A DNA stretch of 57,861 bases from an uncultured Pseudomonadota bacterium (GCA_964453985.1 CAYVQB010000001.1:1-57861), one strand, 5' to 3'; shown: positions 31,101-49,098, counted from the first letter of the stretch. Program-made: numbers and translations. The notes: a model not told the origin generated them from the sequence alone.

Positions 31101-31898
31101 GTGAAAGAAGCTAATAATAATTCATTTTTTATAAAGCTTTTTGACTTTGTAGGTAATACTGTACTAGCATTTTGTACAGGCATAGGTAATATCGGGTTGT
31201 TTTTTTACGATTCAATGTCCACTATGTTTGCCACCAAACCAAAAACTCAAAAAATATTTTACCAAATGTCCTTCATAGGAGTAAACTCCTTGGGCGTTAT
31301 TGCTTTGGTAGGTATAACTATTGGTGCAGTGCTGGCAGTACAAAGTCATATAGGTCTTCATCGCTTTGGAGCGCAACGGTTTATAGGACCAATTGTATTC
31401 ATATCAATGGTAAGAGAATTTGGACCAGTGCTAACGGCAATAATGGTAATAGGTCGAGCCGGCTCTGCTATGACAGCAGAAATAGGCACCATGCGTATAA
31501 CAGAACAAATTGATGCGTTGCAAACTTTATGTATCAATGTAAAACAATATCTAGTTATTCCAAGATTAATTGCATCTACTTTCATATTACCTTTTCTTTC
31601 TATTTTTTGTTCTCTTTGCGGCATAGCAGCTGGATACTTTGTTTCCGTATATATTTTAAATATCAACTCAGAAATGTATATGGAGTCTATCAGAGAAAAT
31701 GTAGTTTTTTCTGATATTACAAACGGTTTAGTAAAGTCTATTTTCTTTGGACTTTTATTGTCTTTAATTTGTAGTTATAAAGGTTTTATAACAAAAGGAG
31801 GAGCTAAGGGAGTGGGCATAGCAACAACCCAAGGCGTTGTGTACGCTAACGTAACGATATTTGTGGCTGACTATATACTTACCTCACTTATGTTCTAA
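31101..31898 (+). CDS. mlaE: Mla-type ABC transporter permease
   Basis: REFGPVLTAIMVIGRAGSAMTAEIGTMRITEQIDAL matches the MlaE signature. GTG start. Confidence 0.85.
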   Translation: MKEANNNSFFIKLFDFVGNTVLAFCTGIGNIGLFFYDSMSTMFATKPKTQKIFYQMSFIGVNSLGVIALVGITIGAVLAVQSHIGLHRFGAQRFIGPIVFISMVREFGPVLTAIMVIGRAGSAMTAEIGTMRITEQIDALQTLCINVKQYLVIPRLIASTFILPFLSIFCSLCGIAAGYFVSVYILNINSEMYMESIRENVVFSDITNGLVKSIFFGLLLSLICSYKGFITKGGAKGVGIATTQGVVYANVTIFVADYILTSLMF

Positions 31899-31913
31899 AA
31901 TATTAGTTTTAAA

Positions 31914-32657
31914 ATGATAGAAATAAAAGATTTGAGAAAGGCCTTTGGCCCCAAAAAAATCATCCGTGGACTCGATCTAGATATCCCTGACCACGACTTT
32001 TTAGCAATTATAGGACGATCAGGGGAAGGAAAATCTGTTTTACTAAAAGAGATTATTGGCTTAATAAAGCCCGATTCAGGTGAAGTAATAATAGATGGCA
32101 TCGACGTAACAAAACTCAAAAAAAATCAAGCTCAAGAAATCTACAAAAAATGTGGTTATGTTTTTCAGTTTGCAGCACTACTAGATTCGTTGAATGTTTT
32201 TGAGAATGTAGGCATAACAATGCTAGAAAATGAAGTGCCTCCTGAAAAAGTTAGGCCGTTAGTAATTGAAAAAATAAAAAGTGTAGGGCTAAAAGAAGAA
32301 GTCCTTGATAAATATCCATCGGAATTATCTGGTGGAATGAAAAAAAGAGTTGGGCTAGCAAGAACCTTAATGTTAAGTCCTGAAATATTAATCTACGACG
32401 AACCCACTACCGGACTTGATCCTATTACTGTACGAATTATCCATGAGCTCATAAAGAAAACACAAGATGATTTTAAAGCTACTACAGTAGTTATTTCTCA
32501 CGATATTGAAATATTTAAATATGCAAAACGTGTCGCAATGCTAAATGAAGGTAAAATTGTCTATATCGGACCCGCTGATAATATATGGGAATGCGACAAC
32601 CCATACATTTATCAATTTATACGTGGGCTAGATGAAGGTCCAATAAAAGTTAAATAA
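31914..32657 (+). CDS. mlaF: Mla-type ABC transporter ATP-binding protein
   Basis: Walker A GRSGEGKS, signature LSGGMKKRVGLAR, Walker B ILIYDEPT. Confidence 0.8.
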   Translation: MIEIKDLRKAFGPKKIIRGLDLDIPDHDFLAIIGRSGEGKSVLLKEIIGLIKPDSGEVIIDGIDVTKLKKNQAQEIYKKCGYVFQFAALLDSLNVFENVGITMLENEVPPEKVRPLVIEKIKSVGLKEEVLDKYPSELSGGMKKRVGLARTLMLSPEILIYDEPTTGLDPITVRIIHELIKKTQDDFKATTVVISHDIEIFKYAKRVAMLNEGKIVYIGPADNIWECDNPYIYQFIRGLDEGPIKVK

Positions 32658-32662
32658 AATTT

Positions 32663-33946
32663 ATGAATAACTCCCCTCTCCTATTAATAGTAGATGATGA
32701 AACAACAATTTTAAAAACTCTAAAAGAAGCTCTCGAAGATGAAAAATATCAAGTCGAAACAATACAAGATGGTAATAAAGCCCTTGATGCCATAGGAAAA
32801 TTAATTCCAGACCTAGTTCTTCTTGATATATTTATGCCTAATTGTAGCGGACTAGAACTCCTAGAAAAAATAAAAAAAGAATATCCTCAACAAAGGGTAA
32901 TAATAATTTCAGGCTTTGGAAATATACCTATTGCAATACAAGCAGTAAAAAATGGAGCCTTAGATTTTATTGAAAAACCTCTCAACCTTGATGAGATTCT
33001 TTCAAAGATTAGTTTTCTAAAAGAAAAACACGTAGACTCAAAAATAAAAAATGACTCCCCTGAAAATCTAGAAGATTTTGGAATAATTGGTCAGAGCAAT
33101 TTATTTTTAGAACTAATACAACAACTTAATATGGTAAAAAAATTAACATTACCACTTCTTATCTATGGACAACATGGCACAGGCAAAGCCCTATTCGCCA
33201 AGTATATTCACGGAAGTGTCCTTCATGGCTTATGTATCCTAAATAGTGAAAGCCTAACCAGAGAAGAATCTATTAAAATTATAAACAATTTTTTCACAAA
33301 TCAAGAAGGCACTCTTTTTGTAAAAAATATAAATCAATTAGATCTTGATAGTCAGAAGAGGTTATTATTTTATTTACAAAATGATACCACCAAAAATACA
33401 AGGGTAATTGCTTCATGCTGCACACCCTTATATGAATTAGTAAAAGAAGGAAAGTTTAATAACTCTCTTTTTCATGCACTAAATTCAACTCCCTTAGAAA
33501 TACCCCCCTTAAATAAGCGTAGATATGACATACCATTATTGGTAGATTATTATCTGAAGAAATATAATCTAAGATATAATAAATCTATTATTTTAAATAT
33601 TAAAAGTGTCCGCAACCTCCGAAACCACAGTTGGCAGGCAAATGTATCAGAGTTAAAGACTGTAATTAAAAAAATAGTTATTAACACTGATCAAGAAAAC
33701 CAGGTAATCAATCCTGAAATATTAAATCTGTATTTGGACGAAAAAAGAACCCATATAATAGAGGAACAATTTTTCACAAAATTCAACTCTTTAAAAGAAG
33801 CATCTCAGGATTTTGAGAAAAACTTTCTAACTTTCTTACTAAAAAAAAATCATTTCGATATAAAACAAGTATCAAACCGATTAAATTTAACTCCTATTCA
33901 ATTACGTGATAAAATACTAAAGTTAGATTTAGAGATTAAAATTTAA
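32663..33946 (+). CDS. NtrC-family-like response regulator with a degenerate sigma54-interaction AAA+ domain and a Fis-type HTH
   Basis: Receiver domain (LLIVDDE...DLVLLDIFMP...KP), Walker A GQHGTGKA, PPLNKRRYDIPLL and WQANVSEL blocks. However, no GAFTGA loop, and Walker B DE is replaced (GTLFVKNINQL). Confidence 0.7.
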   Translation: MNNSPLLLIVDDETTILKTLKEALEDEKYQVETIQDGNKALDAIGKLIPDLVLLDIFMPNCSGLELLEKIKKEYPQQRVIIISGFGNIPIAIQAVKNGALDFIEKPLNLDEILSKISFLKEKHVDSKIKNDSPENLEDFGIIGQSNLFLELIQQLNMVKKLTLPLLIYGQHGTGKALFAKYIHGSVLHGLCILNSESLTREESIKIINNFFTNQEGTLFVKNINQLDLDSQKRLLFYLQNDTTKNTRVIASCCTPLYELVKEGKFNNSLFHALNSTPLEIPPLNKRRYDIPLLVDYYLKKYNLRYNKSIILNIKSVRNLRNHSWQANVSELKTVIKKIVINTDQENQVINPEILNLYLDEKRTHIIEEQFFTKFNSLKEASQDFEKNFLTFLLKKNHFDIKQVSNRLNLTPIQLRDKILKLDLEIKI

Positions 33947-33967
33947 AATAAAAAATATGGGGTTGAT

Positions 33968-34954
33968 ATGCAAAATTTACCATCTCAAGATATAACCGAA
34001 AAAATCAAAGATCAAAGTATTGAATGGCAAAAATTAAGAGACGAAATTAAAAAAGGAATCGTTGGGCAAGAACATATAGTTGATCGAACTTTTATAGGGT
34101 TACTATGTAATGGTCACATTTTATTAGAAGGTGTGCCAGGACTTGCAAAAACAACTTTAATAAAAACAATATCAGAAGCTATCGGATTAAATTACCAGAG
34201 AATTCAATTTACACCTGATTTATTACCTGCAGATTTAATAGGAACTCTTATATATAACCCTAAAACACAAGAGTTTCAGACAAAAAAAGGTCCCATATTT
34301 TCAAACCTAATTTTAGCAGATGAGATAAACAGGGCACCAGCAAAAGTACAATCAGCATTACTTGAAGCCATGCAAGAACAACAAGTTACAATTGGTTCTG
34401 AAAGCTATAAATTAGAAAAACCATTTTTGGTATTGGCTACCCAAAACCCTATTGAACAAGAGGGAACATATCGCCTACCTGAAGCTCAAGTAGATAGATT
34501 TATGTTCAAACTTATTATGACATATCCCTCTTATGAACAAGAAAGAGAGATCATAAATAAAGTCTTTAATCCAATACCAATTCACAAAACAATGAATACC
34601 GAACAAATCACCATAGGGCAAAAACTGGTAAATCAAATTTATGTGGATGAAAAAGTTACTGAATATTTATTAAATATAGTCTTTGCAACAAGATCCCCAG
34701 AAAATTATAACCTGAATGACCTTGAAGGGCTTATAGAATATGGCGGCTCACCAAGAGCTACATTGATGTTGGATTATGCTTCTCGCGCATATGCTTTCTT
34801 GAAAAAGAGACATTTTGTAATTCCTGACGACATAAAAGCCATTGCCCCTGATGTCTTAAGACACAGGATACTACTGACTTATCAGGCAGAAGCTGAAAAT
34901 ATTACAACGGATCAAATTATACAAAAAATATTGCAAACTATACCCTCGCCTTGA
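33968..34954 (+). CDS. MoxR-family AAA+ ATPase
   Basis: LLEGVPGLAKT Walker A, ILADEINRAPAKVQSALLEAMQE Walker B/sensor block, ATQNPIEQEGTYRLPEAQVDRF. Confidence 0.85.
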   Translation: MQNLPSQDITEKIKDQSIEWQKLRDEIKKGIVGQEHIVDRTFIGLLCNGHILLEGVPGLAKTTLIKTISEAIGLNYQRIQFTPDLLPADLIGTLIYNPKTQEFQTKKGPIFSNLILADEINRAPAKVQSALLEAMQEQQVTIGSESYKLEKPFLVLATQNPIEQEGTYRLPEAQVDRFMFKLIMTYPSYEQEREIINKVFNPIPIHKTMNTEQITIGQKLVNQIYVDEKVTEYLLNIVFATRSPENYNLNDLEGLIEYGGSPRATLMLDYASRAYAFLKKRHFVIPDDIKAIAPDVLRHRILLTYQAEAENITTDQIIQKILQTIPSP

Positions 34955-34987: not shown

Positions 34988-35017
34988 TTGACAATTATGC
35001 AAGCGGAAAACTATCTT
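34988..35017 (+). promoter_or_regulatory. Candidate sigma70-type promoter ahead of the gspC-like gene
   Basis: TTGACA (34988-34993), an 18-nt spacer, TATCTT (35012-35017), then TAAGG Shine-Dalgarno and ATG 35047. Confidence 0.3.
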
Positions 35018-35046: not shown

Positions 35047-36180
35047 ATGAAGCAAAAATTATGGATTTTAAATAGCAGTTTATTAGCAATCTTTTTAATG
35101 GTATTGCTAATAAATAACTTTTTGGAGCAAGAGCCTCCAAAAATAAGAATAAACCCAAAGCCGACTGGCGAAGTTCAAAAAAAAAAACCAGTTGTATTAA
35201 ATATAGAAAGAATCTATAAATTAGATATCTTTGGAACATTTTCTGATTCCATATCGCCTGTAGCGCAACAAAGCTTTGTAACGCCTATACCAGAGCCTCA
35301 AAAACCTACTATAATACCTCCTCCCGAACCTAAAAAACAGGAATTTATAGCACCTTTAAATATATCATTAAAAGGAATCATATATTCATCCCAAGAAACA
35401 AATAGCGTTGCAATGTTTGAGGATGAAACTAAAAAAGAACATATATATCACTCTGGTGATAAAATAAAAGACGGGCAGGTCTTAAGAGTTGGAAGAAATA
35501 AAGTAATAGTCTTACGATCTAATGGACAAGAAGAAATATTTCTTTTAAGAAAAGATGATCTTGTGTTGGGGGAACAATCACAACAACCTCAAAAACCTGA
35601 CGAGAAATGGAAATATACCATAAAGAAAATCGATGATAAAAATTATGAATTAGATATTAAGCAATTTGCTAAAAACACACCATCTCTTGCAAAATTCATG
35701 GAAAACCTAAATATTGCTACAGCCTACCAAGATGGACAAACCGTTGGAATAAAAATTGGAGCAATAGAACCGGATGAAGTAGGCACCGTGATGGGCCTAA
35801 AACCTAGCGATATAATCACATCTATAAATAATGTTGATACAAAAAGCCTAAAAAATAGAATAAAAATTTATGATGCTATCACAAGAACGAAAAAGAAAGA
35901 TATAATAAAGGTCGCCTTAAAAAGAGACAGCCAAGATTTAATGTTAAATTATAAAATTTCCAAACTAGAGCCAAAGAAAGCGTCTTTCTTACAGTCAACA
36001 AAAGAGGGTGCTCAAACATCTGGAATGTTTAAATTAAGCCCTGAACAAGAAAGAGAAAAAAGGCTACAAGAGTTTAAGAAATACCATAGAAGCCCAAGGC
36101 AACAACAGGCAATTTCCGACGTAAGACAAAGATTTCTTGATAATTTAAGATCTAGAACAAGAAACAGAAGGGTACGGTAA
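35047..36180 (+). CDS. gspC: Type II secretion GspC-like protein (N-terminal TM, HR-like domain, PDZ-like domain, basic tail)
   Basis: TM LWILNSSLLAIFLMVLLI. HR-like LKGIIYSSQETNSVAMFEDETKKEHIYHSGDKIKDGQVLRVGRNKVIVLRSNGQEE. PDZ-like GIKIGAIEPDEVGTVMGLKPSDIITSINN. Lies immediately upstream of a secretin. Confidence 0.55.
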   Translation: MKQKLWILNSSLLAIFLMVLLINNFLEQEPPKIRINPKPTGEVQKKKPVVLNIERIYKLDIFGTFSDSISPVAQQSFVTPIPEPQKPTIIPPPEPKKQEFIAPLNISLKGIIYSSQETNSVAMFEDETKKEHIYHSGDKIKDGQVLRVGRNKVIVLRSNGQEEIFLLRKDDLVLGEQSQQPQKPDEKWKYTIKKIDDKNYELDIKQFAKNTPSLAKFMENLNIATAYQDGQTVGIKIGAIEPDEVGTVMGLKPSDIITSINNVDTKSLKNRIKIYDAITRTKKKDIIKVALKRDSQDLMLNYKISKLEPKKASFLQSTKEGAQTSGMFKLSPEQEREKRLQEFKKYHRSPRQQQAISDVRQRFLDNLRSRTRNRRVR

Positions 36181-36186
36181 GGGACT

Positions 36187-38976
36187 ATGACTAAGCTTTT
36201 TAAAATAACTTTTATTTTAATGTTTTTTATTTTCATAACAAAAAACAACTATCACATGGGGATGCCCGCTGCATCACCAAATCCTACTGGAGGCATGTCA
36301 GGAGCCATTCCTGCAACACCCCCAATTCCAACGCCTGCACCCGCTAGTTCGCCTACACCCAGCCTCCCCGGCGGGCAAGCCAGCGTAACCCCATCAGTTG
36401 CAAAAACCTATGTCCAGATACCAAAAACTGAGCCCTTAGTGATGGGTCTGCCCAAAGAAGAAAATAAAAATAAAGAAGAAAAGATAAAAAAAGAATCCAA
36501 ACCTGCACAACCCTCACAAGCAAAGCCTGCAGGCAAACAAAAAGACAAAGAAAAAAAAGAAATTTTCTTAAATTTTGAAAATGCAGAACTTTCAAGCCTG
36601 GTAAATTACATTGCAGAGATCAAGAAAATAAACCTGATTCCTGATAAAAATTTGGCTGGTAAAAAAATATCTTTATCTATTAGAAATCCTCTTACTGTAG
36701 ATGGTGCCTGGAATATATTTTTAACAGTGCTTGATATGGGAGGCTTTACAATAGTAGAAAGAGGTGATGTTTACACCGTTGTGCCCAATAACGCCAAAGG
36801 ACAGCCGTTTAGATCTTTCATAAACACTCCATTCTTAACCTTGCCTGATAGCGATGAAGATATACGCTATGTAGTTTTTTTACAAAATATACATGTAGAA
36901 CAAATTCAAGGTTTATTACAAGGCATGTTAAGCAAGACAAGTTCTGTTGTACCCTACAAAGAAGTTAATGGTATGGTTGTAACAGACAAATCATACAATA
37001 TTAAGTCTGCGATGAAAGTTATACAAGAGCTAGATCAAACAGGATTACAAGAAACTGTTGTTGTAATGAGACTTAAACAAACTAATGCTACCGATATACA
37101 AAAACTGCTTACAAGCCTTATTCAACCAGGTCAAAACCAACAAAATCCTCTTGCTAGATTACTAGGAAGACAAGCAGAAAGTAGTCTTACATACTTTTCT
37201 CCAAGTACTAAAATTATCGCTGAAGAAAGAACAAATTCTCTAATTTTAATGGGCAACCAAAAATCAATTGAAAAAATAGAAAAATTCATTACAGACAACC
37301 TGGATACTGAACTTAAAGGCACAGAATCTCCTTTACATATTTATGAGCTACAACACACAGATGCTGAGCAAATGCGTAGAATTTTAGAAGTAGTGGTTCC
37401 TTATGATATGGCTAAGGCAAAACAAGGTGGCATCAGAGGTGGTGCAAAATACTTTAAGCCCATGAAATTTGAAATTGATAAAGACGGTAACAGATTGATT
37501 GCTTCTTCTACAGAAAAACAAGACTGGAAAATGCTAAAGAAAACAATACGTGACCTTGATAAACCTCAACCTCAAGTTGCCATAGAAACTCTAATACTTA
37601 CAGTTGACTTTAATGACCTAAAAGAATTAGGTGGTGCTCTCAGAAATAAACACGAAAATCAAATTGGGCAAGGAGTGAATTTCCAATCTCCAACCTATGC
37701 AAAAACAATTCTTAAAGGAACAGACAATAGCATTTCTCTTGCTAATATGGCACTGGGACTAACAGGAGGAGTTGGTGCAACTATTCTTACTATAGGAAAT
37801 GCCGCAAGCAAAACAGGGATCTGGGGTATTTTTAGGGCTTTAAAGCAACAAACAAATACAACTTTACTTTCTCAACCATTTTTTACTGTAGCAAATAATA
37901 CTCAAGCAGAAATTAAAATTGGAGAAACACTTAATGTAGTCAACGAAACTACAGAAAGTAAATTTAAAGGTTATACAGAAAGAACAGCTGATACAACCTT
38001 AAAAGTCACACCACAAATAAACTTAGATGGAATTATAAGATTAAAGATAGATCTTGATTTTGATTTCTTTACCGATCCAGAATTAGGAAATAAAGATACA
38101 AAAAAATTAGTAACAGACGTCTCTGTTGCAAACGGTCAAGTACTTGTTCTTGGTGGTTTTATAAAAAGCAAAACAACCGAGTTAAATAACAAAACACCAT
38201 TACTTGCAGATATTCCAATTTTAGGTTGGATGTTTAAGAATAAGAAAAAAGTAATCACAAAAAATTATTTATTGGTATTCATGTCTCCAACAATAGTAAA
38301 ACCGCGTTCGACGCCAGGAACAAACCTATACACCAATCTAAAAATAGAAGATGCAACCAATACAATTAGAGATTCAGTGCAAACAAGAAAAACAAACGAT
38401 CCAATACATAACTGGTTTTTTAATCCTGAAAAGGAAGATTACTCTTACAAAGTTACTAACTTTGCATCAGCTAAGTATCAGCCAACAAGTGTTGATATAA
38501 AAAATGATCCTTATTACAGAGCAACACCTGACGCTAAACTTAAATATATGGAAAAAATAAAGAAACAAGAACAAGAAGCTGAAGATAAATTCCTAGGCAA
38601 AACAGAACCCGACAATAATATGTTGGATAAAAAAAGAGAACAACTTAAGCAAATGCTTACAAAAAATCCAGTAATTAAAACAGAAGAACCAAAAATAGAA
38701 GCTAAACTTATTAAGCCTAAAAAACGCCAAGAATTTAAAGAAATACTTAACATCCCAAAGGTTAATAAAAAAAGAAATGCTCTGAAAAACAGGCTTACTG
38801 TAGCCCAAAATATCCCTCAAGAAGTACCAGTAAATATTGAACCTATAAAACCGTTAAGACCTACAATAGACAAAAATGAAATATTAGCTAAAGCTAATAA
38901 CATGAATTTAAATAAATTAAATAGCAGAAAAACTGTCCAAGCAGCCAGAACATTAAAAGCGAGGAGTCTGGCGTGA
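36187..38976 (+). CDS. gspD: Secretin (GspD/PilQ family) with a Pro/Ala/Thr-rich N-terminal linker and a long C-terminal extension
   Basis: N0 domain IFLNFENAELSSLVNYIAEIKKINLI. Secretin core VLVLGGFIKSKTTELNNKTPLLADIPILGWMFKNK...LLVFMSPTIV. 929 aa. Confidence 0.85.
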   Translation: MTKLFKITFILMFFIFITKNNYHMGMPAASPNPTGGMSGAIPATPPIPTPAPASSPTPSLPGGQASVTPSVAKTYVQIPKTEPLVMGLPKEENKNKEEKIKKESKPAQPSQAKPAGKQKDKEKKEIFLNFENAELSSLVNYIAEIKKINLIPDKNLAGKKISLSIRNPLTVDGAWNIFLTVLDMGGFTIVERGDVYTVVPNNAKGQPFRSFINTPFLTLPDSDEDIRYVVFLQNIHVEQIQGLLQGMLSKTSSVVPYKEVNGMVVTDKSYNIKSAMKVIQELDQTGLQETVVVMRLKQTNATDIQKLLTSLIQPGQNQQNPLARLLGRQAESSLTYFSPSTKIIAEERTNSLILMGNQKSIEKIEKFITDNLDTELKGTESPLHIYELQHTDAEQMRRILEVVVPYDMAKAKQGGIRGGAKYFKPMKFEIDKDGNRLIASSTEKQDWKMLKKTIRDLDKPQPQVAIETLILTVDFNDLKELGGALRNKHENQIGQGVNFQSPTYAKTILKGTDNSISLANMALGLTGGVGATILTIGNAASKTGIWGIFRALKQQTNTTLLSQPFFTVANNTQAEIKIGETLNVVNETTESKFKGYTERTADTTLKVTPQINLDGIIRLKIDLDFDFFTDPELGNKDTKKLVTDVSVANGQVLVLGGFIKSKTTELNNKTPLLADIPILGWMFKNKKKVITKNYLLVFMSPTIVKPRSTPGTNLYTNLKIEDATNTIRDSVQTRKTNDPIHNWFFNPEKEDYSYKVTNFASAKYQPTSVDIKNDPYYRATPDAKLKYMEKIKKQEQEAEDKFLGKTEPDNNMLDKKREQLKQMLTKNPVIKTEEPKIEAKLIKPKKRQEFKEILNIPKVNKKRNALKNRLTVAQNIPQEVPVNIEPIKPLRPTIDKNEILAKANNMNLNKLNSRKTVQAARTLKARSLA

Positions 38977-40646
38977 TAAAAGAAATATTCTTACCTGAAA
39001 AAATTGGTAATAAAAGATTATACTCTGAAAAAATACTAGGTTTTACTATTCAAGAAAATATTATTACCTGTGCAAAAATATTTGCTAAGCCTTCAAAAAC
39101 AATAATAGAACAAATAATATCAAAAGAAATTCCTGAGGAACAAAGTTCAGAAGATTTTACACATTTTGCATCCAAAGCAATAAAAGAAATTATAAAAGAA
39201 CTAGGCAAATATGACAAAATCAGAATTTCTATACCATCTTCTTTGGTAATCTTTAAAGAACTAGAAGTGCCTTTTAAGGACCCAGACAAGATAAGAATGA
39301 TCCTTGATTATGAAATAGAATCTATGCTTCCATTTTCTATGGAAGAATCAATAATAGATTTTATAATCACAAAACAAGAACTAAAAGAAACCAAATCTAT
39401 AATACTCGCCGCAGCAGTAAGAAAAGAAGATTTGAGCTCTATACTAGATATTTATACAAATGCAGGTATAAAACCAAATAATATCACCATAGATCTATTT
39501 GCAATCTATAGCCTTTACCAACAAATTCCTGAATACCAAGAAATTAAAAATGCTAGCGCATTAGTTGATCTAGGGCTAGGCTCAACACGTGTATCGGTTC
39601 TATTAGATGGACAACTAAGACTCACTAGAGTTCTGCCTAGAGGCTTATTAACAATCGCTAAAATAATAAGTGATGAACTCAATAGACCGTTAAAAGAAAT
39701 TGAAACAAAATTATTAAACTATGGTCTTGCAATTACACATGACGAGCAATATGATAAATCATTAAAAAAACATGTAATTAATTTTTTTAATGATATTCAA
39801 TTCACATTAAATTCTTTTAGCCTAAAATTAAATTTTTACCAAGGAATAAGCAAAATACTATTTACAGGAAGATGCTCACAGATTAAAGATCTGGCAAAAC
39901 TTGGTAATAATATTCTCCAGATTCCATGTGATATTTTTGATTTCGAAAAAATATTTGTAAACAAACTTTTTAAAAATAAATTAAAAACTATACCGTATGA
40001 TTCAAATTTATATTTAGCCGCTCTAGGCACGGCTTTGCCAAGCGATCAACAAGACCAGTTTGACTTAAGAAGAAAAATTTTTGCGATACAAGAAGATAAT
40101 ATTACAAGAAAACAAATTATCAGTGCACTAATAATAATATTTGCTATATTCACAACCATATCTATCACTGGGTATATACAAATTAATACACTAACCCAAA
40201 ACTTCAATAGGATAGAACAAAGGCAAACCGAAAAGTTACGTCTAATATTCCCTGTACCAGCTAAAATACCAAAAAATATTAGTCTCAGAAATTTAATGCA
40301 GAGAGCAAAAAACTTAATACAAGACAAAGTACAAATGTGGGAGCCATTCAAAAAAGAAAAATTACACCCACTAGAAATATTACAAGAACTCACAAATATT
40401 ATAGATAAAAGACGCTTTGATGTAACAATAGAAGAAGTAATAATTTCCCAAGAAGATGGAATTCCAAAAGCAGAAGTAGAGGGTTATTTCAGATCAAAAA
40501 CAGGAAGTAATCATTTCAAATATTTTGAAGAATTAGAAAAAAGATTTGTAGATTCACGTTTTTTCACTTTGGAAGAAGAAATAGATCCAAAAGGGGTAGA
40601 AGACAAGGGCGTTAAATTTATAGCAAAATTAAGAATTCAAGAATAA
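38973..40646 (+). CDS. GspL-like / PilM-PilN-fusion-like assembly platform protein (actin-like cytoplasmic domain, one TM, periplasmic domain)
   Basis: The GTG start overlaps the secretin stop and has a GAGGAG Shine-Dalgarno. PilM-type VDLGLGSTRVSVLLDGQLRLTRVLPRGL. TM IISALIIIFAIFTTISITGYI around aa 385. Confidence 0.5.
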   Translation: MIKEIFLPEKIGNKRLYSEKILGFTIQENIITCAKIFAKPSKTIIEQIISKEIPEEQSSEDFTHFASKAIKEIIKELGKYDKIRISIPSSLVIFKELEVPFKDPDKIRMILDYEIESMLPFSMEESIIDFIITKQELKETKSIILAAAVRKEDLSSILDIYTNAGIKPNNITIDLFAIYSLYQQIPEYQEIKNASALVDLGLGSTRVSVLLDGQLRLTRVLPRGLLTIAKIISDELNRPLKEIETKLLNYGLAITHDEQYDKSLKKHVINFFNDIQFTLNSFSLKLNFYQGISKILFTGRCSQIKDLAKLGNNILQIPCDIFDFEKIFVNKLFKNKLKTIPYDSNLYLAALGTALPSDQQDQFDLRRKIFAIQEDNITRKQIISALIIIFAIFTTISITGYIQINTLTQNFNRIEQRQTEKLRLIFPVPAKIPKNISLRNLMQRAKNLIQDKVQMWEPFKKEKLHPLEILQELTNIIDKRRFDVTIEEVIISQEDGIPKAEVEGYFRSKTGSNHFKYFEELEKRFVDSRFFTLEEEIDPKGVEDKGVKFIAKLRIQE

Positions 40647-40672
40647 TTAAAGGGCGAACGGCGTATAAAACT

Positions 40673-41224
40673 ATGAAAGCTTTAACAAACCTATCAAATT
40701 ACCTACAAAGTCTTAGTAAAAAAGAATTTAAAAAATATTTAATTATATTTATAAGCGCCATAACTTTGTTAACTATATTTGCGATATATTATGTATATAA
40801 TACAAGTTCAAACTTAACAAAAGAAATAAAAACCCTTGAAAAACTTGCAAATGAAACTATAGAAATAATAAACAAAAATGCAAAACTAAATTTAGAAGAA
40901 AACAAACTAAAAGAGTTATTAAACAAAAACATGGGTTTTAATATTAAAACTTATTTTGAACAATTTATAAAAGAACAAAACATTACCCCTGAAGCCAATT
41001 GGGGAGATAATACCTTTACTCAAGCAGTAGAAGGCAATGATAAATTTGACGAAGTAGTACTTACTGCTACATTCAAAAATCAGACAATGCAAGAATTAGT
41101 TAAAATTTTAGATGTTCTTAAAAAGAATGAAATGCTTTATATAAAACAACTTTTAATAAAAAACCAAGATAATAAAAAAATAGAATTTACTCTTACCCTA
41201 GCAGCAAAAAAATATAAGAAATAA
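40673..41224 (+). CDS. GspM/PilO-like bitopic protein (assignment by topology and position only)
   Basis: 183 aa with an N-terminal TM (YLIIFISAITLLTIFAIYYVY), a coiled coil and a small C-terminal domain. Lies between the platform gene and the second secretin. Confidence 0.35.
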   Translation: MKALTNLSNYLQSLSKKEFKKYLIIFISAITLLTIFAIYYVYNTSSNLTKEIKTLEKLANETIEIINKNAKLNLEENKLKELLNKNMGFNIKTYFEQFIKEQNITPEANWGDNTFTQAVEGNDKFDEVVLTATFKNQTMQELVKILDVLKKNEMLYIKQLLIKNQDNKKIEFTLTLAAKKYKK

Positions 41225-41242
41225 AACTTGGGGACAATTTAG

Positions 41243-43675
41243 ATGATTAAGAAAATATTATTAATATCAATGTTTTTTGCAAACATGATCTTTATTTGTA
41301 AAACAGAAAAAGACATAATAAAAAATGAAACTCCCTCCATACATCCAAAAGCAAACGTCGTAATTAATAATAATCCAAAAAAGCCTACAAGTGACAATAA
41401 AAATACAGATAAAACTAAAACTGATAATAAAAAACAAAAAGACACAAAAGTATTTCTAAACTTTGATAATATATCACTTTCAAACGTTGTTACATATATT
41501 GCAGAAAGAAAAAAGATAGATATTATATATCCCAAACCAGAATTAAAAGCTCAATTTGATAATCAAAAAGTCTCTTTAACTACCCACAAAGCCCTCTCTT
41601 TAGATAGTGCATGGGATATTCTTTTAACCCTTCTAGAACTAAATAACTTTACAATAATCAATGTTGATGGAATTTATAGAGTTGCATCAAAAGCAGATAA
41701 TTCTAAAGAACCGTTGCCATTCTATTCTTCTGGAACAGGAACAGAACCTGAAGATCTTCCAGAATCCGACATTATTGTTCGTTATGTATATTTCCTTAAA
41801 AATATACAGGCACAAGGGGTAAAGCCTATTATAGACACTATGTTAGACCAGCCTGCTCAAATAAATGCCGACCTACAAGCCTTTATAATTACAGATAAAT
41901 GTATAAATATTAAAGCTGCTATGGCAGTAATAAAAGAGCTGGATCAGGGAGGGCTAAGAGAGTCTATTAAGGTGATTAAGTTAAATCATACAAACGTAAA
42001 CGATATAAAAATTTTATTCGATAAAATCATACCAAAACAAAATCAAAATAGTGCCGTAAGGTTCATAGGACCTTCCCCAGAAAAACCCTCTAGTTATTTT
42101 TCTTCATCCACAAGAATTATTCCTGATACTAGAAACAACTCTTTGATATTATTAGGAACAGAAAAAGGAATAACCAATATTATTAATTTCATTCAAAAAA
42201 ACATAGATATTCCACTTACTTCTGCTCAATCAAGACTACATATAAAAGAACTAAAATATGCAAAAGCACAAGACCTTATAAGAATACTAAAAGAGATAGT
42301 CAAAAGACCTGCAGGAGAACAAAAAACAGAACAGATGGGGCAATATAAATTTTTTGAAGATGTTCATATGGTTGCAGACTCTCAACAAACTGATGGTGGT
42401 GGTGGAGCCGGCAATAGGTTGGTTATATCTTGCAACAAGGAAGACTGGATAAGGCTTTCCAAATTTATAGATAAACTTGATAAACCTCAACCTCAAGTAG
42501 CCTTTGAAGTAATGATAGTTAAAGCATTTATAGAAAGAGACAAAGTTCTGGATGCTACTTTTAAACCAAAAAATCAAGGCCTGTTTGGCAAAGGAACAAA
42601 TGTACGTTTTATGAACCAAGGAAAAGCAGCCGATATATCCACAACAGGCGAACTAACTCCAATAACTATTAACCAGGAAGATGGAGCAACTCTAACTCTT
42701 GGAAAATATGATTCTCTAGGAGCAAATCTTTGGGCAGTAGTCCAAGCAACTTTAAAAACAGACAATTTCAATGTTATAGCCCAACCCTTTTTAGTAACCA
42801 ATAATAATAGCCCTTGTACATTTGATGCAAGTTCAATTCGTTGGGTGCCCGGAAAATTAAATACTAGTGTGGGCACACAACCTGTACAATCTAAAAACCA
42901 AGCTAAAGCACGAACAGTTGTTAAGCTAACACCTGAAATTAACTCCACAGGCCAAATAGCCTTAAAAATAGTCGTCGATTCTGATGATTACCAATCCGCA
43001 GCCCAAACAGATGCCAATAGAGATACAAGAAAATTAGATACCAAAGTAGTTATTGGAACAGGAGAGGTTCTTACCTTAGGAGGCTTAACAAAAGACGAAG
43101 TACAAGATAAAGATTATAAAACTCCAATTTTAGGAGACATTCCAATTTTAGGAAATTTTTTTAAAGCTAAATCTAAAGTGACAAAAAAAACCACCTTATA
43201 TATATTCATTAGACCAAGTATTATAAAACCTGAACTAGAAGGCGGCGTAGATGAATATACACAATTAAAACTGGATTACGCAAAACGCCAAATAATAAAT
43301 GCAGACACTTATTATACAGAAAAAGACCCTATTCAAAGATGGTTCTTTAAGCCTGAAGGTGAATCTATAAAACAAACAATATCTGATGCGCGCAAGGGAA
43401 TTTATAGACCTATTGATAACTTTGCATACGGGTCCAAACAACCAAGATCTGTAGATATACGATATGATGATTATTATAGAGCAGAAGAAGGCGTACAAGA
43501 AGAAGTTAAAAAAATTCTGCCTGCAGTAAAATTTACAGAGATAGATAAAAAACCTCCTGCAAGCGAGAAAATAGAAGTTGTCACTCTTAACAAACCAAAA
43601 GCAACCCAGACCAAAAATATCGTAATAAATAGAAACAAACGCATAGGACTTAAGAGCAGACTCAGCGAACGATAA
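41243..43675 (+). CDS. Second secretin (GspD/PilQ family) paralog
   Basis: N0 domain VFLNFDNISLSNVVTYIAERKKIDII. Secretin core VLTLGGLTKDEVQDKDYKTPILGDIPILGNFFKAK...LYIFIRPSII. The C-terminal extension is homologous to that of the first secretin. Confidence 0.85.
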   Translation: MIKKILLISMFFANMIFICKTEKDIIKNETPSIHPKANVVINNNPKKPTSDNKNTDKTKTDNKKQKDTKVFLNFDNISLSNVVTYIAERKKIDIIYPKPELKAQFDNQKVSLTTHKALSLDSAWDILLTLLELNNFTIINVDGIYRVASKADNSKEPLPFYSSGTGTEPEDLPESDIIVRYVYFLKNIQAQGVKPIIDTMLDQPAQINADLQAFIITDKCINIKAAMAVIKELDQGGLRESIKVIKLNHTNVNDIKILFDKIIPKQNQNSAVRFIGPSPEKPSSYFSSSTRIIPDTRNNSLILLGTEKGITNIINFIQKNIDIPLTSAQSRLHIKELKYAKAQDLIRILKEIVKRPAGEQKTEQMGQYKFFEDVHMVADSQQTDGGGGAGNRLVISCNKEDWIRLSKFIDKLDKPQPQVAFEVMIVKAFIERDKVLDATFKPKNQGLFGKGTNVRFMNQGKAADISTTGELTPITINQEDGATLTLGKYDSLGANLWAVVQATLKTDNFNVIAQPFLVTNNNSPCTFDASSIRWVPGKLNTSVGTQPVQSKNQAKARTVVKLTPEINSTGQIALKIVVDSDDYQSAAQTDANRDTRKLDTKVVIGTGEVLTLGGLTKDEVQDKDYKTPILGDIPILGNFFKAKSKVTKKTTLYIFIRPSIIKPELEGGVDEYTQLKLDYAKRQIINADTYYTEKDPIQRWFFKPEGESIKQTISDARKGIYRPIDNFAYGSKQPRSVDIRYDDYYRAEEGVQEEVKKILPAVKFTEIDKKPPASEKIEVVTLNKPKATQTKNIVINRNKRIGLKSRLSER

Positions 43676-46269: not shown

Positions 46270-46614
46270 ATGTTTACCTTTTTATTTTCAGCTCTACAGG
46301 CAGCCGAACAAACCTCCGCTCCAGCAAAAAGTGCCGGCATGGGAGCTATCGGTATTTTTGCTCAATTATTACCATTTATACTAATCGCTATAATATTTTA
46401 TTTTTTCATAATAAGACCTCAAAGCAAACAACGTCAACTATTAAAACAAATGATCGATAACATAAATATAGGCGACAAAGTTATAACAAAAGGTGGAATC
46501 ATTGGAACAATTTCACAAATATTAGAAAATTCTTTCATAATAAATTTATATGATGGCAGCAAGCTAGAGATACTCAAAAATGCCGTCATATCCATGATTA
46601 ATGACAACCAATAG
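46270..46614 (+). CDS. yajC: Preprotein translocase subunit YajC
   Basis: One TM, then IIRPQSKQRQLLKQMIDNINIGDKVITKGGIIGTI, the YajC signature. Confidence 0.8.
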   Translation: MFTFLFSALQAAEQTSAPAKSAGMGAIGIFAQLLPFILIAIIFYFFIIRPQSKQRQLLKQMIDNINIGDKVITKGGIIGTISQILENSFIINLYDGSKLEILKNAVISMINDNQ

Positions 46615-47710
46615 ATTTCCAGCTTTTCTTTATCCGCTAATAAGCTTAATGGTAGGCATATACTGGCAAGACAGTTATGCCTACTCTTTTTTACTACTAA
46701 TAACAAGTATAATAACCTCTCTTTTGTTTTTGTTCTTTCAACGCACAAAAACAAAAGCTGTATTGCTTCTTACTTGCTCCTTCTGTTTCTTTTCAGGAGC
46801 ACTATTACTTAAAACGCAAAAAATAGTAAACTGCTCTTTTCTAGATATCCTTGCTGATAAAAAAATAAATTTAATTGCAAAAATAATAGATAAGGAACGT
46901 GAAAATATCGGAAACAACAGGACTAGAGATATTCTTAAGCTATCAGTAATAGAAATACAAGAAGATTTACATTTAAAATATCAATCAGCCAAATTCAACC
47001 TACTCTGCTACTCATATACTCCCATAAATGCACAAATAGGCGACTCGATATTAGCCAAAAACATTATCTTAAAAAAGCCAAAACAAACAAGTATAATGGC
47101 ACAAAACAGAAATTTTAACGACTATCTAATAAAAGAAAACATATTAAACTGCGTCTTTATAAGAAAGCTTTATTATAAAATTATCTATTCACCTAAGCTT
47201 AACTTAAACAGGTGGATACAAAACAAAAAACATTCTATCTATTCAAGCCTTAAAGAAAAAATAATGCCAGAGACCTTTTCATTCTTCTCTTCTATTTTTC
47301 TAGGCTATAAGAAGCTCTTGTACTCAAGCAATTTGAGACAAAAATTTGGCTACTGGGGCATATCTCACTATCTAGCTAGGTCTGGCCTGCATATAGTACT
47401 TTTCATCTTACTGTGGAGCTTCTTGTTAGGATTTTTGCCACTAAATATATATATCAAACGAGTTCTTTTATTGTGTGTTTGCCTAATCTATCAAATATTC
47501 AGCTGGATCAGCATTTCTTTCATTAGGGCTTTTTGTGTTTTTCTTATATATCAAACTGGTAAAATATTTAACAAACAAACTAATTTTTTGCACATACTAA
47601 CGCTAGTCTGTTTGATTATTTTGCTATTTAATCCCATGCAATTATTTTTCTTAGACTTTCAACTCAGCTTTGCTTTAACATTTGCATTAGCCTGGCCTCA
47701 AAGTAGTTAG
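46601..47710 (+). CDS. comEC: ComEC/Rec2-family competence channel protein, apparently truncated at the 3' end
   Basis: N-terminal TM plus OB-like region, and the start of the competence domain (GISHYLARSGLHIVLF...FIRAF...LDFQLSFALTFA). It ends soon after the FQLSFA block, and no metallo-beta-lactamase domain is present. Confidence 0.6.
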   Translation: MTTNRFPAFLYPLISLMVGIYWQDSYAYSFLLLITSIITSLLFLFFQRTKTKAVLLLTCSFCFFSGALLLKTQKIVNCSFLDILADKKINLIAKIIDKERENIGNNRTRDILKLSVIEIQEDLHLKYQSAKFNLLCYSYTPINAQIGDSILAKNIILKKPKQTSIMAQNRNFNDYLIKENILNCVFIRKLYYKIIYSPKLNLNRWIQNKKHSIYSSLKEKIMPETFSFFSSIFLGYKKLLYSSNLRQKFGYWGISHYLARSGLHIVLFILLWSFLLGFLPLNIYIKRVLLLCVCLIYQIFSWISISFIRAFCVFLIYQTGKIFNKQTNFLHILTLVCLIILLFNPMQLFFLDFQLSFALTFALAWPQSS

Positions 47711-47718
47711 TTCAACCT

Positions 47719-48159
47719 CTATGAATCATTCTTTTTTTCTCTTTTTACTTTATACACCTCAGGCTCTGCACGAGAAATTATATCTATAGAATAATCTATA
47801 TCTCCAGTCATATAGTGTTTTAAATCAGGATTTATACCCAAAAGAACACCTTGTGATTCTTTATCTAACTTTTTTAAATATTCAGAATTTTTAACTTCTA
47901 TAAAAAGCCAACGCTCCGGCGTTTTCATCATGTGATGATCCAAACGCCTACCCTCGTCAGAAACTCTATAATCCTCCATAGAATGACCAAAATCAAATAC
48001 AACATCATAAGAAAAATCAGGTTCTTTGCAGAAAGCTACCCTAAGCCCTTTATCATCTGTAATTATATAAGATAAAAAATGATCCGGGCTTAATCTTTTG
48101 CCTATTTCTTTAGGTAGTTTAAATTCTAGAAACTCCATTAAATACCCTTCAATCATCAT
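47719..48159 (-). CDS. Small acidic cytoplasmic protein; candidate immunity/antidote partner of the upstream Hint-domain protein
   Basis: 146 aa with no signal peptide. The start overlaps the last 11 nt of the 48149-49081 gene. No family was recognised, so the functional call is by context only. Confidence 0.4.
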   Translation of the reverse strand: MMIEGYLMEFLEFKLPKEIGKRLSPDHFLSYIITDDKGLRVAFCKEPDFSYDVVFDFGHSMEDYRVSDEGRRLDHHMMKTPERWLFIEVKNSEYLKKLDKESQGVLLGINPDLKHYMTGDIDYSIDIISRAEPEVYKVKREKKNDS

Positions 48160-49081
48160 ATCTTACTTTTGTAGAATCATTCTTACCATGTTGTACTTCT
48201 ACTGTTGGTTCATTTCCAGATCTCTCACCAGAATAAGGCCTATTTATAACGTTTGCCCCATGCCTATCTGTGCCTACTTGAATTGTGCCTTTATCTGTTT
48301 TTATTGTACGTACATCTCTTCCTTCGGTGAGTTTTTCAAAATCTTTGCCTCTTTGTTCTTTTCCACCAGGCTTTTTATAAACATCTGAGCTTCCATTCGG
48401 TTTTTTTACAGAATCAGAACCCCTTAAGACATCATCTAAGTCAGAGTTAGGCTTACGGATATTTTCCTCGAGCTTCTCAGCACAATGTTTAACAAAAGCC
48501 CCTGCTATTATTGCACACAAAGCCTTAAGAGAAATAATAGCCAGATCTCCTCCAAAAGTCCAAGTTAAGACTGGAATTGAAAGTGCAAAATTATGGACTA
48601 ATATATGCGTACGCCCCTCAGTAAGGATCAGAAACAGATGTCCATCTTTTATTGCAACCTCATACAATTTGACTTGGTTTTGAAGTCGCTTTTTTAAAAC
48701 ACTTACTACCTTAATATTACCTTTCTCTGGAGAGAACAATATATCTCCAGCTCGAAATTCTTCTGCAGCAACAAAACGCTTGGCTAGCCTATTGTAAAGC
48801 TTTTGCTTTGGGCCAACAGTTAATACATCGTTTTCAGTTTTAATTAATATAATTTCTTTAAGCTTTCTTGATGCCACTACTTCTATCTTCTTTTTTTGTC
48901 TTTCAAATTTGCGCGTTGGAATATTGTAAATTGGAACATAGTCCCCAAATTTTAAATCTTTAGCCTTTTTATAAACCCCATTCCCCATGAAAACCATTGT
49001 TTCCGGTAAAAGCCCAGAAAAAACACTAGTAAAATTTGTAAGCACAAAAAACATTAAAACAATTTTTTTAAAAATTTTCAT
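48149..49081 (-). CDS. Secreted Hint-domain protein with a hydrophobic linker and a basic C-terminal domain (candidate toxin/effector)
   Basis: Signal peptide ...FTSVFSG. Hint block A LLPETMVFMGNGVYKKAKDLKFGDYV. Terminal blocks LYEVAIKDGHLFLILTEGRTHILVHN. Followed by 146 aa that include a Lys/Arg/Gly-rich domain. Confidence 0.7.
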   Translation of the reverse strand: MKIFKKIVLMFFVLTNFTSVFSGLLPETMVFMGNGVYKKAKDLKFGDYVPIYNIPTRKFERQKKKIEVVASRKLKEIILIKTENDVLTVGPKQKLYNRLAKRFVAAEEFRAGDILFSPEKGNIKVVSVLKKRLQNQVKLYEVAIKDGHLFLILTEGRTHILVHNFALSIPVLTWTFGGDLAIISLKALCAIIAGAFVKHCAEKLEENIRKPNSDLDDVLRGSDSVKKPNGSSDVYKKPGGKEQRGKDFEKLTEGRDVRTIKTDKGTIQVGTDRHGANVINRPYSGERSGNEPTVEVQHGKNDSTKVRYDD

Positions 49082-49098
49082 TAAAACTTTTCCTTATC

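Follow-up and report, generated by a model that had tools for sequence, protein, structure and literature searches.

Two GspD-type secretins in a conserved five-gene envelope operon of Dependentiae

What does a bacterium build with two outer-membrane secretins encoded around a single set of inner-membrane platform genes? The question is raised by a locus of a Dependentiae (TM6/Babeliales) bacterium, a member of a phylum of widespread obligate parasites of protists. Two gspD copies, with pilQ absent, were reported in all TM6 genomes, where their function was called an open question and it was suggested that one gspD copy substitutes for PilQ (Yeoh et al. 2016, PMC4776705); the duplication itself is already published, but it was never explained. 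We analysed the window, i.e. one whole contig of 57,861 bp in which 35 kb precede the cassette and 14 kb follow it, together with related loci from genomes (n = 47) and metagenomes (n = 48), about 95 in all, some of them on the same contigs. New with respect to PMC4776705 and to Deeg et al. 2019 (PMC6561590) are the cassette of five genes with its promoter and universally kept order, and its separation from motor genes, as well as the age of the duplication, the S-domain extension shared by both paralogs, and the assignment of PilM and PilO folds.

Once the ORFs and their coordinates had been checked, five genes were found on the plus strand between positions 35047 and 43675, in the order gspC-like, D1, L, M and D2, with intergenic spacing ranging from -4 (an overlap) to 26 bp. 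The features of the cassette are the following:

34988..35017, plus strand: sigma-70-type promoter of the cassette, TTGACA-18 nt-TATCTT (consensus scan, 10/12 matches; conservation)
35047..36180, plus strand: GspC/PilP-like protein with N-terminal TM helix, HR domain, weak PDZ and basic tail (Pfam, NCBIfam)
36187..38976, plus strand: secretin D1, 929 aa, with signal peptide, Pro/Ala-rich linker, N0-N3, secretin domain, extended S domain and basic tail (Pfam, TIGR02517, PDB)
38973..40646, plus strand: L, 557 aa, with predicted PilM-type actin-like cytoplasmic domain, TM helix and PilN/GspL-like periplasmic domain (Pfam, AF2, Foldseek)
40673..41224, plus strand: M, 183 aa, bitopic protein of predicted PilO/GspM fold, with TM helix, coiled coil and ferredoxin-like domain (AF2, Foldseek)
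41243..43675, plus strand: secretin D2, 810 aa, with signal peptide, N0-N3, secretin domain and extended S domain (Pfam, TIGR02517, PDB)

This cassette is an operon for the envelope-spanning frame of a T2SS/type IV pilus-like machine in Dependentiae. The canonical scheme comprises a PilM/N/O/P (= GspL/M/C) alignment subcomplex and an outer-membrane channel, and we equated these with the five products of the cassette. In the gap between the MoxR gene and gspC of nine Dependentiae species, the CTTGACA and TATCTT elements of the promoter are invariant, while the sequence of the spacer is variable. Mechanical ORF calling begins gspC at a GTG (35035); its true start is at 35047, where the first-pass annotation had placed it, because a conserved ATG and an AAGGTG ribosome-binding site sit there. 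A GTGA overlap joins the start of L to the stop of D1, and such a start/stop overlap recurs in nearly all loci. Downstream of D2, genes lie mostly on the opposite strand and include no conserved partner. A ComEC-type DNA-uptake gene occurs in the window, 3 kb from the cassette.

Both secretins carry the secretin domain PF00263 (cutoff 27.5), at 120.1 bits for D1 and 109.3 bits (2e-31) for D2. In Pfam searches, the periplasmic part of D1 showed an N0 domain (47.7 bits) and three Secretin_N stretches, and that of D2 a marginal N0 (26.4 bits; cutoff 27) and Secretin_N (52.5 bits). The two proteins are collinear with GspD, aligning to positions 1-591/592 of the 600 of TIGR02517, yet their scores (323.5 bits for D1 and 266.1 bits for D2) fall below the equivalog cutoff of 351.35, so that they are divergent GspD-like proteins and not equivalogs. 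Their best PDB matches were likewise T2SS secretins, namely GspD/XcpQ 5wln for D1 (6e-42) and GspD 5wq7 and 5zdh for D2 (1e-35). Neither reached the PilQ model TIGR02515 (cutoff 284.35), to which only the C-terminal part aligned (166.6 bits for D1, 133.7 bits for D2), and no AMIN domain was found among the Pfam matches of D1 and D2. An S domain is present, residues 707-754 of D1 aligning to the C-terminal S-domain region of PulD 6hcg, and residues 664-747 of D2 being homologous to 707-779 of D1. The C-terminal extension of this domain is conserved in both paralogs and is lineage-restricted; when 1.84 billion representatives were searched exhaustively, it was recovered in just 80 proteins, almost all of them long secretins, the single weak match bearing an organism name being a Dependentiae D2 and one match to a coral protein being spurious. 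Overall, D1 and D2 share 36% identity over 728 residues (E = 8e-121). The possibility of D2 being a lipoprotein ("liposecretin") was considered and rejected, as the lipobox Cys is conserved in neither D1 nor D2.

The GspC-like protein contains an HR domain at residues 108-167 (T2SSC PF11356; 37.2 bits, cutoff 27, 3.2e-9) and a weak PDZ (19.4 bits against a cutoff of 23.2); NCBIfam GspC_delta (NF041515) covers 29-310/311 with 1.7e-30, albeit at 106.8 bits against a cutoff of 150, and TIGR01713 gives 45.8 bits against 101.6. L matches PilM_2 at 87.5 bits (cutoff 27; 1.1e-24), and misses both T2SSL PF05134 (24.4 bits vs a cutoff of 25.5) and TIGR01175 pilM (74.1 vs 133). Its AF2 model (pLDDT 86) displays an actin-like fold (19-354), a long helix (375-423) and an alpha/beta domain (483-555), for which Foldseek returned PilM at 4e-23, with a target-length-normalised TM score of up to 0.81, and the EpsL/PulL cytoplasmic domains at 2e-8 to 5e-8. 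L is a predicted PilM-PilN fusion with the membrane topology of GspL. Homologues of L number more than 200 at full length, and those named by source are Dependentiae/TM6/Babeliales or unclassified "bacterium" MAGs; IMG/VR held no Dependentiae L locus. For M, no Pfam or PDB profile match was obtained by sequence, including an HMM search against PDB; a single one of 27 M orthologs touched T2SSM in Pfam (0.0044), and hhalign of M against the periplasmic part of L gave an insufficient P of about 0.008. The AF2 model of M, built on just 8 sequences (pLDDT 86), had as its top Foldseek matches PilO (3jc8_O, 2.4e-4; 2rjz, 9e-4) and EpsM 1uv7 (TMt 0.64-0.66), and it is by this structure search, rather than by sequence family, that M is assigned a predicted PilO/GspM fold. 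Profiles and folds thus bore out the gene-by-gene assignments of the first-pass annotation (GspC-like, two secretins, GspL/PilM-N-like and GspM/PilO-like).

The C-D1-L-M-D2 order was found in every relative locus covering the region, including lineages whose L is just 28-34% identical, the most distant at 28-30%, with D1 orthologs upstream of L and D2 orthologs downstream of M in all of them; the gap between M and D2 is 18 bp here and small or overlapping in the other loci. The two-secretin arrangement is hence kept in relatives, and the earlier idea of a lineage-specific apparatus gains support, since order, spacing and promoter are conserved across the phylum Dependentiae. In the paralog tree, the main clades received bootstrap values of 99% and 97.5% and mirrored each other in species order, which marks the two secretins as old paralogs. 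With regard to the deepest placement of the duplication, monophyly of all upstream copies obtained 36% bootstrap and that of all downstream copies 13.5%, while a separate duplication event in the deep lineage obtained just 5.5%. Purifying selection is equal on both genes (dN/dS of 0.158 for D1 and 0.156 for D2), and their conservation profiles are similar, which marks both paralogs as functional. D1 and D2 appear to go back to a single old event within the lineage, in which a GspD-type secretin was duplicated, and selection maintains both copies. Positions that each paralog conserves, but in which the two differ, are concentrated in the N3/secretin junction and in a second stretch made up of the S domain and the end of the secretin domain; in solved GspD structures, these regions pack subunit on subunit.

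Genes for the GspE/PilB ATPase, GspF/PilC, pilins and prepilin peptidase are never adjacent to the cassette. In the window, no ATPase, platform or pilin gene was detected by Pfam on all ORFs of at least 120 aa, neither the Walker A motif of GspE/PilB nor the N-terminus of class-III pilins was matched when all six frames were scanned, and none of the E. coli K-12 proteins GspE, F, G, H, I, J, K and O had a tblastn match in the 57.9-kb contig. Within 10 kb on either side of the relatives' loci (about 95), neither Walker-A nor pilin motifs occurred, and E. coli GspE/F/G/H-K/O had no tblastn or blastp match. The earlier statement that none of these genes lies within 57 kb holds for the contig, which carries no motor genes; it reaches, however, over 35 kb on the upstream side of the cassette and 14 kb on the downstream side, and does not extend to the genome. 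Motor and fibre genes elsewhere in the genome have been asserted for other Dependentiae (PMC4776705, PMC4378268, PMC6561590), and it is solely from the literature that we take how many ATPases and pilin sets there are, and even that this organism has gspE/F/G.

Compared with the canonical T2SS, as represented by gspC-D-E-F-G-H-I-J-K-L-M-O of E. coli K-12 (L056), the cassette has in common the GspC HR domain, a GspD-type secretin and the predicted GspM fold; its L has the membrane topology of GspL, and its C-D...L-M succession equals the canonical order minus E-K. In contrast, E, F, G-K and O are absent from the operon and from the 10 kb on either side in relatives, a second secretin follows M, the cytoplasmic domain of L is far closer to PilM than to GspL, and all NCBIfam equivalog cutoffs are missed. 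The departure from canonical loci, which have one secretin and adjacent gspE/F/G, had been noticed in the first pass and is upheld. The type IVa pilus cluster pilM-N-O-P-Q (P. aeruginosa, M. xanthus; 3jc8, 5eou, 2rjz) likewise encodes an alignment subcomplex and a secretin apart from the ATPases and pilins, with L resembling PilM, M resembling PilO, and D2 standing in the pilQ position after the pilO-like gene. It differs from the cassette, in which PilM and PilN are fused, the role of PilP is filled by a GspC-like TM protein that has a PDZ-like region and is encoded first, and the two secretins are of the GspD type, with N0-N3 and S domain and without AMIN. A weak likeness exists to Akkermansia Amuc_1098-1102, in that L matches the Amuc_1101 PilM-like family (8e-20), the secretins match the C-terminus of Amuc_1098 (1e-16) and the M model matches Amuc_1100 structures; the cassette nevertheless scores far below the family cutoffs (71 bits vs 650, and 60 vs 750), and the Amuc cluster has one secretin.

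How two secretins would work with one platform can be pictured in several ways. The reading we favour, tentatively and as falling somewhat short of probable, is that, across the phylum, this operon supplies the envelope scaffold of a single type IV filament machinery, with D1 and D2 as separate gates for two outputs. Each of D1 and D2 would most likely form a homo-oligomeric outer-membrane gate of its own, and the two gates would dock on C/L/M inner-membrane platforms of one kind, so that one reduced machine could serve two outputs: a short endopilus that secretes periplasmic effectors, and a surface pilus or DNA-uptake fibre for which one GspD paralog would replace the missing PilQ. The clustering of paralog-specific positions in expected subunit-contact regions argues softly for separate gates. 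For two outputs speak, likewise softly, the T2SS components and probable type IV pilus components reported, without pilQ, in all TM6 genomes (PMC4776705), and the Tfp assembly genes of Babela, in which the T2SS is the only secretion system (PMC4378268). Against separate gates, the two secretins come with only single copies of C, L and M, and co-transcription with partial translational coupling would fit one complex equally well; against a pilus role, both paralogs are GspD-like without PilQ hallmarks, and pili were not seen on Babela cells (PMC4776705). That one and the same C/L/M platform engages both secretins, either as a hetero-oligomeric or double channel or through interchangeable gates, is possible, if somewhat unlikely.

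Protein secretion alone might also account for both secretins, which would then be alternative gates chosen by cargo class or by life stage (extracellular infectious versus intracellular replicating), with no pilus. We regard this as unlikely: both paralogs are indeed of the GspD and not the PilQ type, and signal peptides on 44% of Chromulinavorax proteins (PMC6561590) imply a heavy export load, but one promoter drives all five genes, leaving no obvious route to stage-specific use, Dependentiae genomes are reported to hold genes for type IV pilus assembly (PMC4378268, PMC6561590), and the ComEC-type gene lies 3 kb away. Quite unlikely is co-assembly of D1 and D2 in one outer-membrane complex, be it a mixed ring or stacked or adjacent rings, with the operon encoding one channel-plus-platform unit. 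Such a complex would agree with the coordinated expression of tightly packed, partly overlapping genes from one promoter, with the single C/L/M set, with the presence of both paralogs side by side without exception through the history of the phylum, and with their common lineage-specific S-domain extension. On the other hand, the literature searched (heteromeric and paired secretins) yielded no precedent for a heteromeric secretin, each T2SS secretin of solved structure consists of 15 copies of one subunit (matched PDB entries, 15 chains), which excludes a strict alternation of D1 and D2, and the conserved differences between the paralogs lie where subunits are expected to touch. Finally, it is contradicted by the data, and hardly credible, that one copy is redundant or decaying, or that D2 is a mere neighbour from an unrelated system. 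Split secretin ORFs do occur in a few assemblies (D2 in L001/L039 and L048; D1 in L023, L071 and L082), but the D2 split in L001 is intact in L002, which comes from the same organism and was assembled independently, dN/dS is low and equal for the two paralogs, neither of which is decaying, and both occupy the same positions in every covering locus; D2, packed close behind M, belongs to the same operon.

The operon probably builds the exit route for the very large predicted secretomes of Dependentiae. With two secretins maintained throughout the history of the phylum next to just one alignment complex, it amounts to a natural experiment on the pairing of secretins with inner-membrane platforms, and bears on the merging or splitting of T2SS and type IV pilus functions. 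We know of no T2SS or T4P for which one platform with two interchangeable gates running both functions has been described; should the gates be interchangeable in this way, a minimal parasite genome would run secretion and pilus formation or DNA uptake from a single type IV filament machine. The cassette also offers a clean test case for the question asked in 2016, i.e. whether one GspD acts in place of PilQ, its practical value being modest until the complex is imaged or purified in cultivable Babela, Vermiphilus or Chromulinavorax.

Upstream of the cassette, and outside its own promoter, lie two further genes:

32663-33946, plus strand: sigma-54-type response regulator (Pfam)
33968-34954, plus strand: MoxR AAA+ ATPase (Pfam)

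A sigma-54 promoter, prompted by this NtrC/PilR-like regulator, was considered and rejected, as the sigma-70-type promoter is conserved instead; TGGCAC-N5-TTGC, with at most 2 mismatches, had 25 matches against 30.5 expected, none of them upstream of gspC or moxR. MoxR was also rejected as a member of the transcription unit, because the conserved promoter separates moxR from gspC and one subclade (L003/L026, L022 and L029) has no moxR there. In most loci the response regulator gene precedes that of MoxR, and the latter, directly upstream of gspC in most of them, is the best conserved gene there, with 63-82% identity.

The tandem-secretin cluster is a real feature: a variant T2SS/T4P scaffold, found throughout the lineage, in which the secretin is duplicated. 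It lies in AT-rich DNA (G+C of the window about 32%) in which Pfam searches of the ORFs also identified the diderm housekeeping genes LpxK, MlaE, SecG, MreB, NusA, IF-2 and ATP synthase, and its layout is as follows:

35035/35047-43675, + strand, cassette of five ORFs (gspC-like gene C, secretin D1, L, M and secretin D2) with spacings of 6, -4, 26 and 18 bp

The start of gspC was set at position 35047 by a conserved AAGGTG-ATG. Upstream of it, nine species share unchanged CTTGACA and TATCTT elements, separated by 18 nt, amid variable flanking sequence; these constitute a candidate promoter deduced from conservation alone. Because of the tight spacing and the conserved promoter, the five genes are best read as a single predicted transcription unit.

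Pfam and NCBIfam matches for C, D1, D2 and L, together with fold matches for L and M, proved the gene-by-gene description of the first-pass annotation correct. The GspC-like protein scored above the Pfam cutoff for the T2SSC HR domain and below threshold for PDZ, and aligned nearly end to end with the NCBIfam model GspC_delta at a score under its cutoff. Both D1 (929 aa) and D2 (810 aa) contain N0, Secretin_N and Secretin domains (Pfam) and align with the GspD model TIGR02517 along its full length (323.5 and 266.1 bits, respectively, both under the 351-bit equivalog cutoff), while their match to PilQ is confined to the C-terminal half. Their closest solved structures are the T2SS secretins GspD, XcpQ and PulD. 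The signal peptides of both are ordinary, and no lipobox conservation was found among the orthologs of either paralog. The two proteins share 36% identity across 728 residues; their collinearity begins at N0 and includes an S-domain-like region, in which D1 residues 707-754 align with the PulD S domain. D1 stands apart by its longer basic tail and by a low-complexity linker, rich in Pro, Ala and Met, that precedes N0. This linker, which contains 'MP' and is also rich in Thr, follows the signal peptide at about residues 22-105 (window 36250-36500); in many D1 orthologs such a stretch is 70 to >200 residues long, and it is absent from D2. It could serve as a spacer or as a cell-wall contact.

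For L (557 aa), Pfam returned PilM_2 (1e-24) and narrowly missed T2SSL. In its AlphaFold2 model (pLDDT 86, 25 sequences) a complete actin-like domain is followed by a long helix that includes the TM segment, and an alpha/beta domain forms the C-terminus. Foldseek ranked PilM at the top (4e-23, TM up to 0.81), with the cytoplasmic domains of EpsL/PulL well below it (2e-8). Taken together, the PilM_2 match, the model and the Foldseek ranking point to a predicted fusion of PilM and PilN whose membrane topology is that of GspL. Two short segments of L are also strongly conserved: the N-terminus (MIKEIFLPE..., residues 1-15, window 38973-39020), where M1, F6, P8 and R15 are invariant and L7 and E9 nearly so, and the linker preceding the TM segment (FDLRRK-F, residues about 360-372, window 40050-40090), where L365 is invariant and F363, R366, K368 and F370 nearly so. 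Both resemble the INLLP motif, the PilN peptide that binds PilM, and either segment could be an internal copy of it within the fusion protein. No sequence-level family was found for M (183 aa) by Pfam or profile searches. Its model, with a pLDDT of 86 from a shallow alignment of only 8 sequences, shows a TM helix, a long coiled coil and a ferredoxin-like domain, and its best PDB matches are PilO (3jc8_O, 2rjz, 5uvr) and EpsM.

More than 200 full-length homologues of L were found, the named ones belonging to Candidatus Dependentiae, Babeliales, candidate division TM6 and unclassified 'bacterium' MAGs. We compared 47 loci (one genome per species), 48 metagenome loci, some of them duplicates, and 4 exact look-ups. 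The order gspC-D1-L-M-D2 on one strand was present in every locus with a long enough contig, even where L identity is only 28-34%. The start of L overlaps the D1 stop in nearly all loci; M and D2 either overlap or have a small gap between them. The genes past D2 show no conservation and lie mostly on the opposite strand. Eleven of these loci (L006, L011, L012, L014, L016, L021, L025, L037, L041, L045 and L048) come from public MAG records titled 'uncultured Pseudomonadota bacterium'; they carry the Dependentiae cassette with the same synteny and 37-57% L identity, and their labels look wrong.

The reported lack of GspE, GspF and pseudopilins in the window was upheld by three approaches, covering the 35 kb before the cassette and the 14 kb after it, since the window is the whole contig of 57,861 bp: (i) no T2SSE, T2SSF or pilin domain was detected by Pfam in any window ORF of at least 120 aa, (ii) a six-frame search of the window found neither the GspE/PilB/PilT Walker A motif nor a class-III pilin N-terminus, and (iii) E. 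coli K-12 GspE, F, G, H, I, J, K and O gave no tblastn match in the window. Likewise, no GspE-type Walker A, pilin N-terminus or homologue of E. coli GspE/F/G/O occurs within 10 kb in any relative's locus; the separation of scaffold and motor genes is therefore a phylum trait, not peculiar to one contig.

In a secretin tree, the copies upstream of L and those downstream of M formed two clades with mirrored species order, with bootstrap support of 99% for the main D1 clade and 97.5% for the main D2 clade (neighbour-joining, 200 bootstraps, E. coli GspD as single outgroup, the deepest joins being without resolution). Within a deep-branching group, upstream copies were monophyletic at 98.5% and downstream copies at 87.5%; their pairing as sisters, as expected from an independent duplication, received only 5.5%. 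In both paralogs the extended region (D1 707-785) ranks with the most conserved parts, and when 1.84 billion representative proteins were searched exhaustively just 80 matched it, the strong matches being long D1-like secretins and the weak ones D2-like, one with a Dependentiae name; one coral protein among the 80 is spurious. Being common to D1 and D2 and lineage-restricted, this S-domain extension argues that the pair arose by duplicating a GspD within the lineage and not by recruiting a PilQ. Purifying selection is equally strong on both paralogs (dN/dS 0.158 and 0.156 in the only unsaturated species pair; 0.06-0.26 in the other pairs). Secretin ORFs split in some assemblies (D2 in L001/L039 and L048; D1 in L023/L071, L082 and L051) look like assembly errors; that of L001 is a sequencing or assembly error, the gene being intact in L002, which was assembled independently from the same organism. 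Between the close relatives L016 and L017, dS is 0.04-0.09 in L and M and 0.34-0.60 in MoxR, C, D1 and D2, which suggests that the L-M segment was recently recombined or replaced, or that the secretins and GspC turn over faster.

In type IV filament machines, the pilin fibre works through an outer-membrane pore, which a scaffold of this sort connects to the cytoplasmic ATPase and the PilC/GspF platform. As judged from sequence and models, one operon supplies the complete periplasm-spanning scaffold, with L as PilM/N, M as PilO, C as PilP/GspC, plus a secretin. We favour, at somewhat less than an even chance, a reading in which D1 and D2 would form separate gates, each on a platform of the same kind, and would serve two outputs. 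It is favoured because C-D1 mirrors the canonical gspC-gspD order while D2, behind the PilO-like M, holds the place of pilQ behind pilO, and because the paralog-specific conserved residues cluster around the junction of N3 with the secretin domain and in the region made up of the distal secretin domain and the S domain; both places touch neighbouring subunits in solved GspD structures. Co-transcription and the single C/L/M set fit a composite channel of D1 and D2 equally well; we consider such a channel unlikely.

The presence and number of Dependentiae ATPases and pilins are taken from the literature. TM6 genomes are reported to encode T2SS and probably pilus-type components without PilQ (PMC4776705), a further reason for preferring separate gates with two outputs. 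The T2SS is described as the only secretion system of Babela, for which Tfp assembly genes are mentioned (Pagnier et al. 2015, PMC4378268); type IV pilus assembly genes are also reported by Deeg et al. 2019 (PMC6561590). That both secretins would instead be secretion gates, specific for cargo or stage, agrees with the GspD-like character of both paralogs and with the absence of visible pili on Babela (PMC4776705), and seems to us rather unlikely. The two-secretin fact is already published: Yeoh et al. 2016 (PMC4776705) report a pair of gspD copies in all TM6 genomes, with pilQ absent, and suggest that one copy stands in for PilQ. In the texts consulted we found neither a description of the cassette nor later functional work. 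Our additions concern how the operon is built and how universal it is, the conservation of its promoter, when and from what the duplication arose, and the assignment of L to PilM and of M to PilO.

Upstream, the cassette adjoins a run of mlaE, ABC ATPase, sigma-54-type response regulator and MoxR AAA+ ATPase genes (window 31101-34954, + strand, 5-21 bp apart), as it does in L003, L005, L007 and most other loci. No other gene of the neighbourhood is as well conserved as MoxR (63-82% identity), which adjoins gspC in most loci; no VWA or DUF58 partner was found near it. MoxR or the regulator may have a functional link to the secretion scaffold, or the arrangement may simply be frozen synteny. Three kb downstream of D2, a 369-aa ORF (46601-47710, + strand), far shorter than a typical ComEC, contains just the 'Competence' membrane domain of ComEC (8e-22) plus a weak DUF4131; it was not seen beside the cassette in two relatives whose gene tables were inspected. 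Beyond it, at 47719-50274 (- strand) and 50469-51836 (+ strand), a pretoxin-HINT domain protein (310 aa) between two family-less ORFs (146 and 391 aa) adjoins a clostripain-family C11 peptidase; the group may be a small island encoding polymorphic toxins or effectors.
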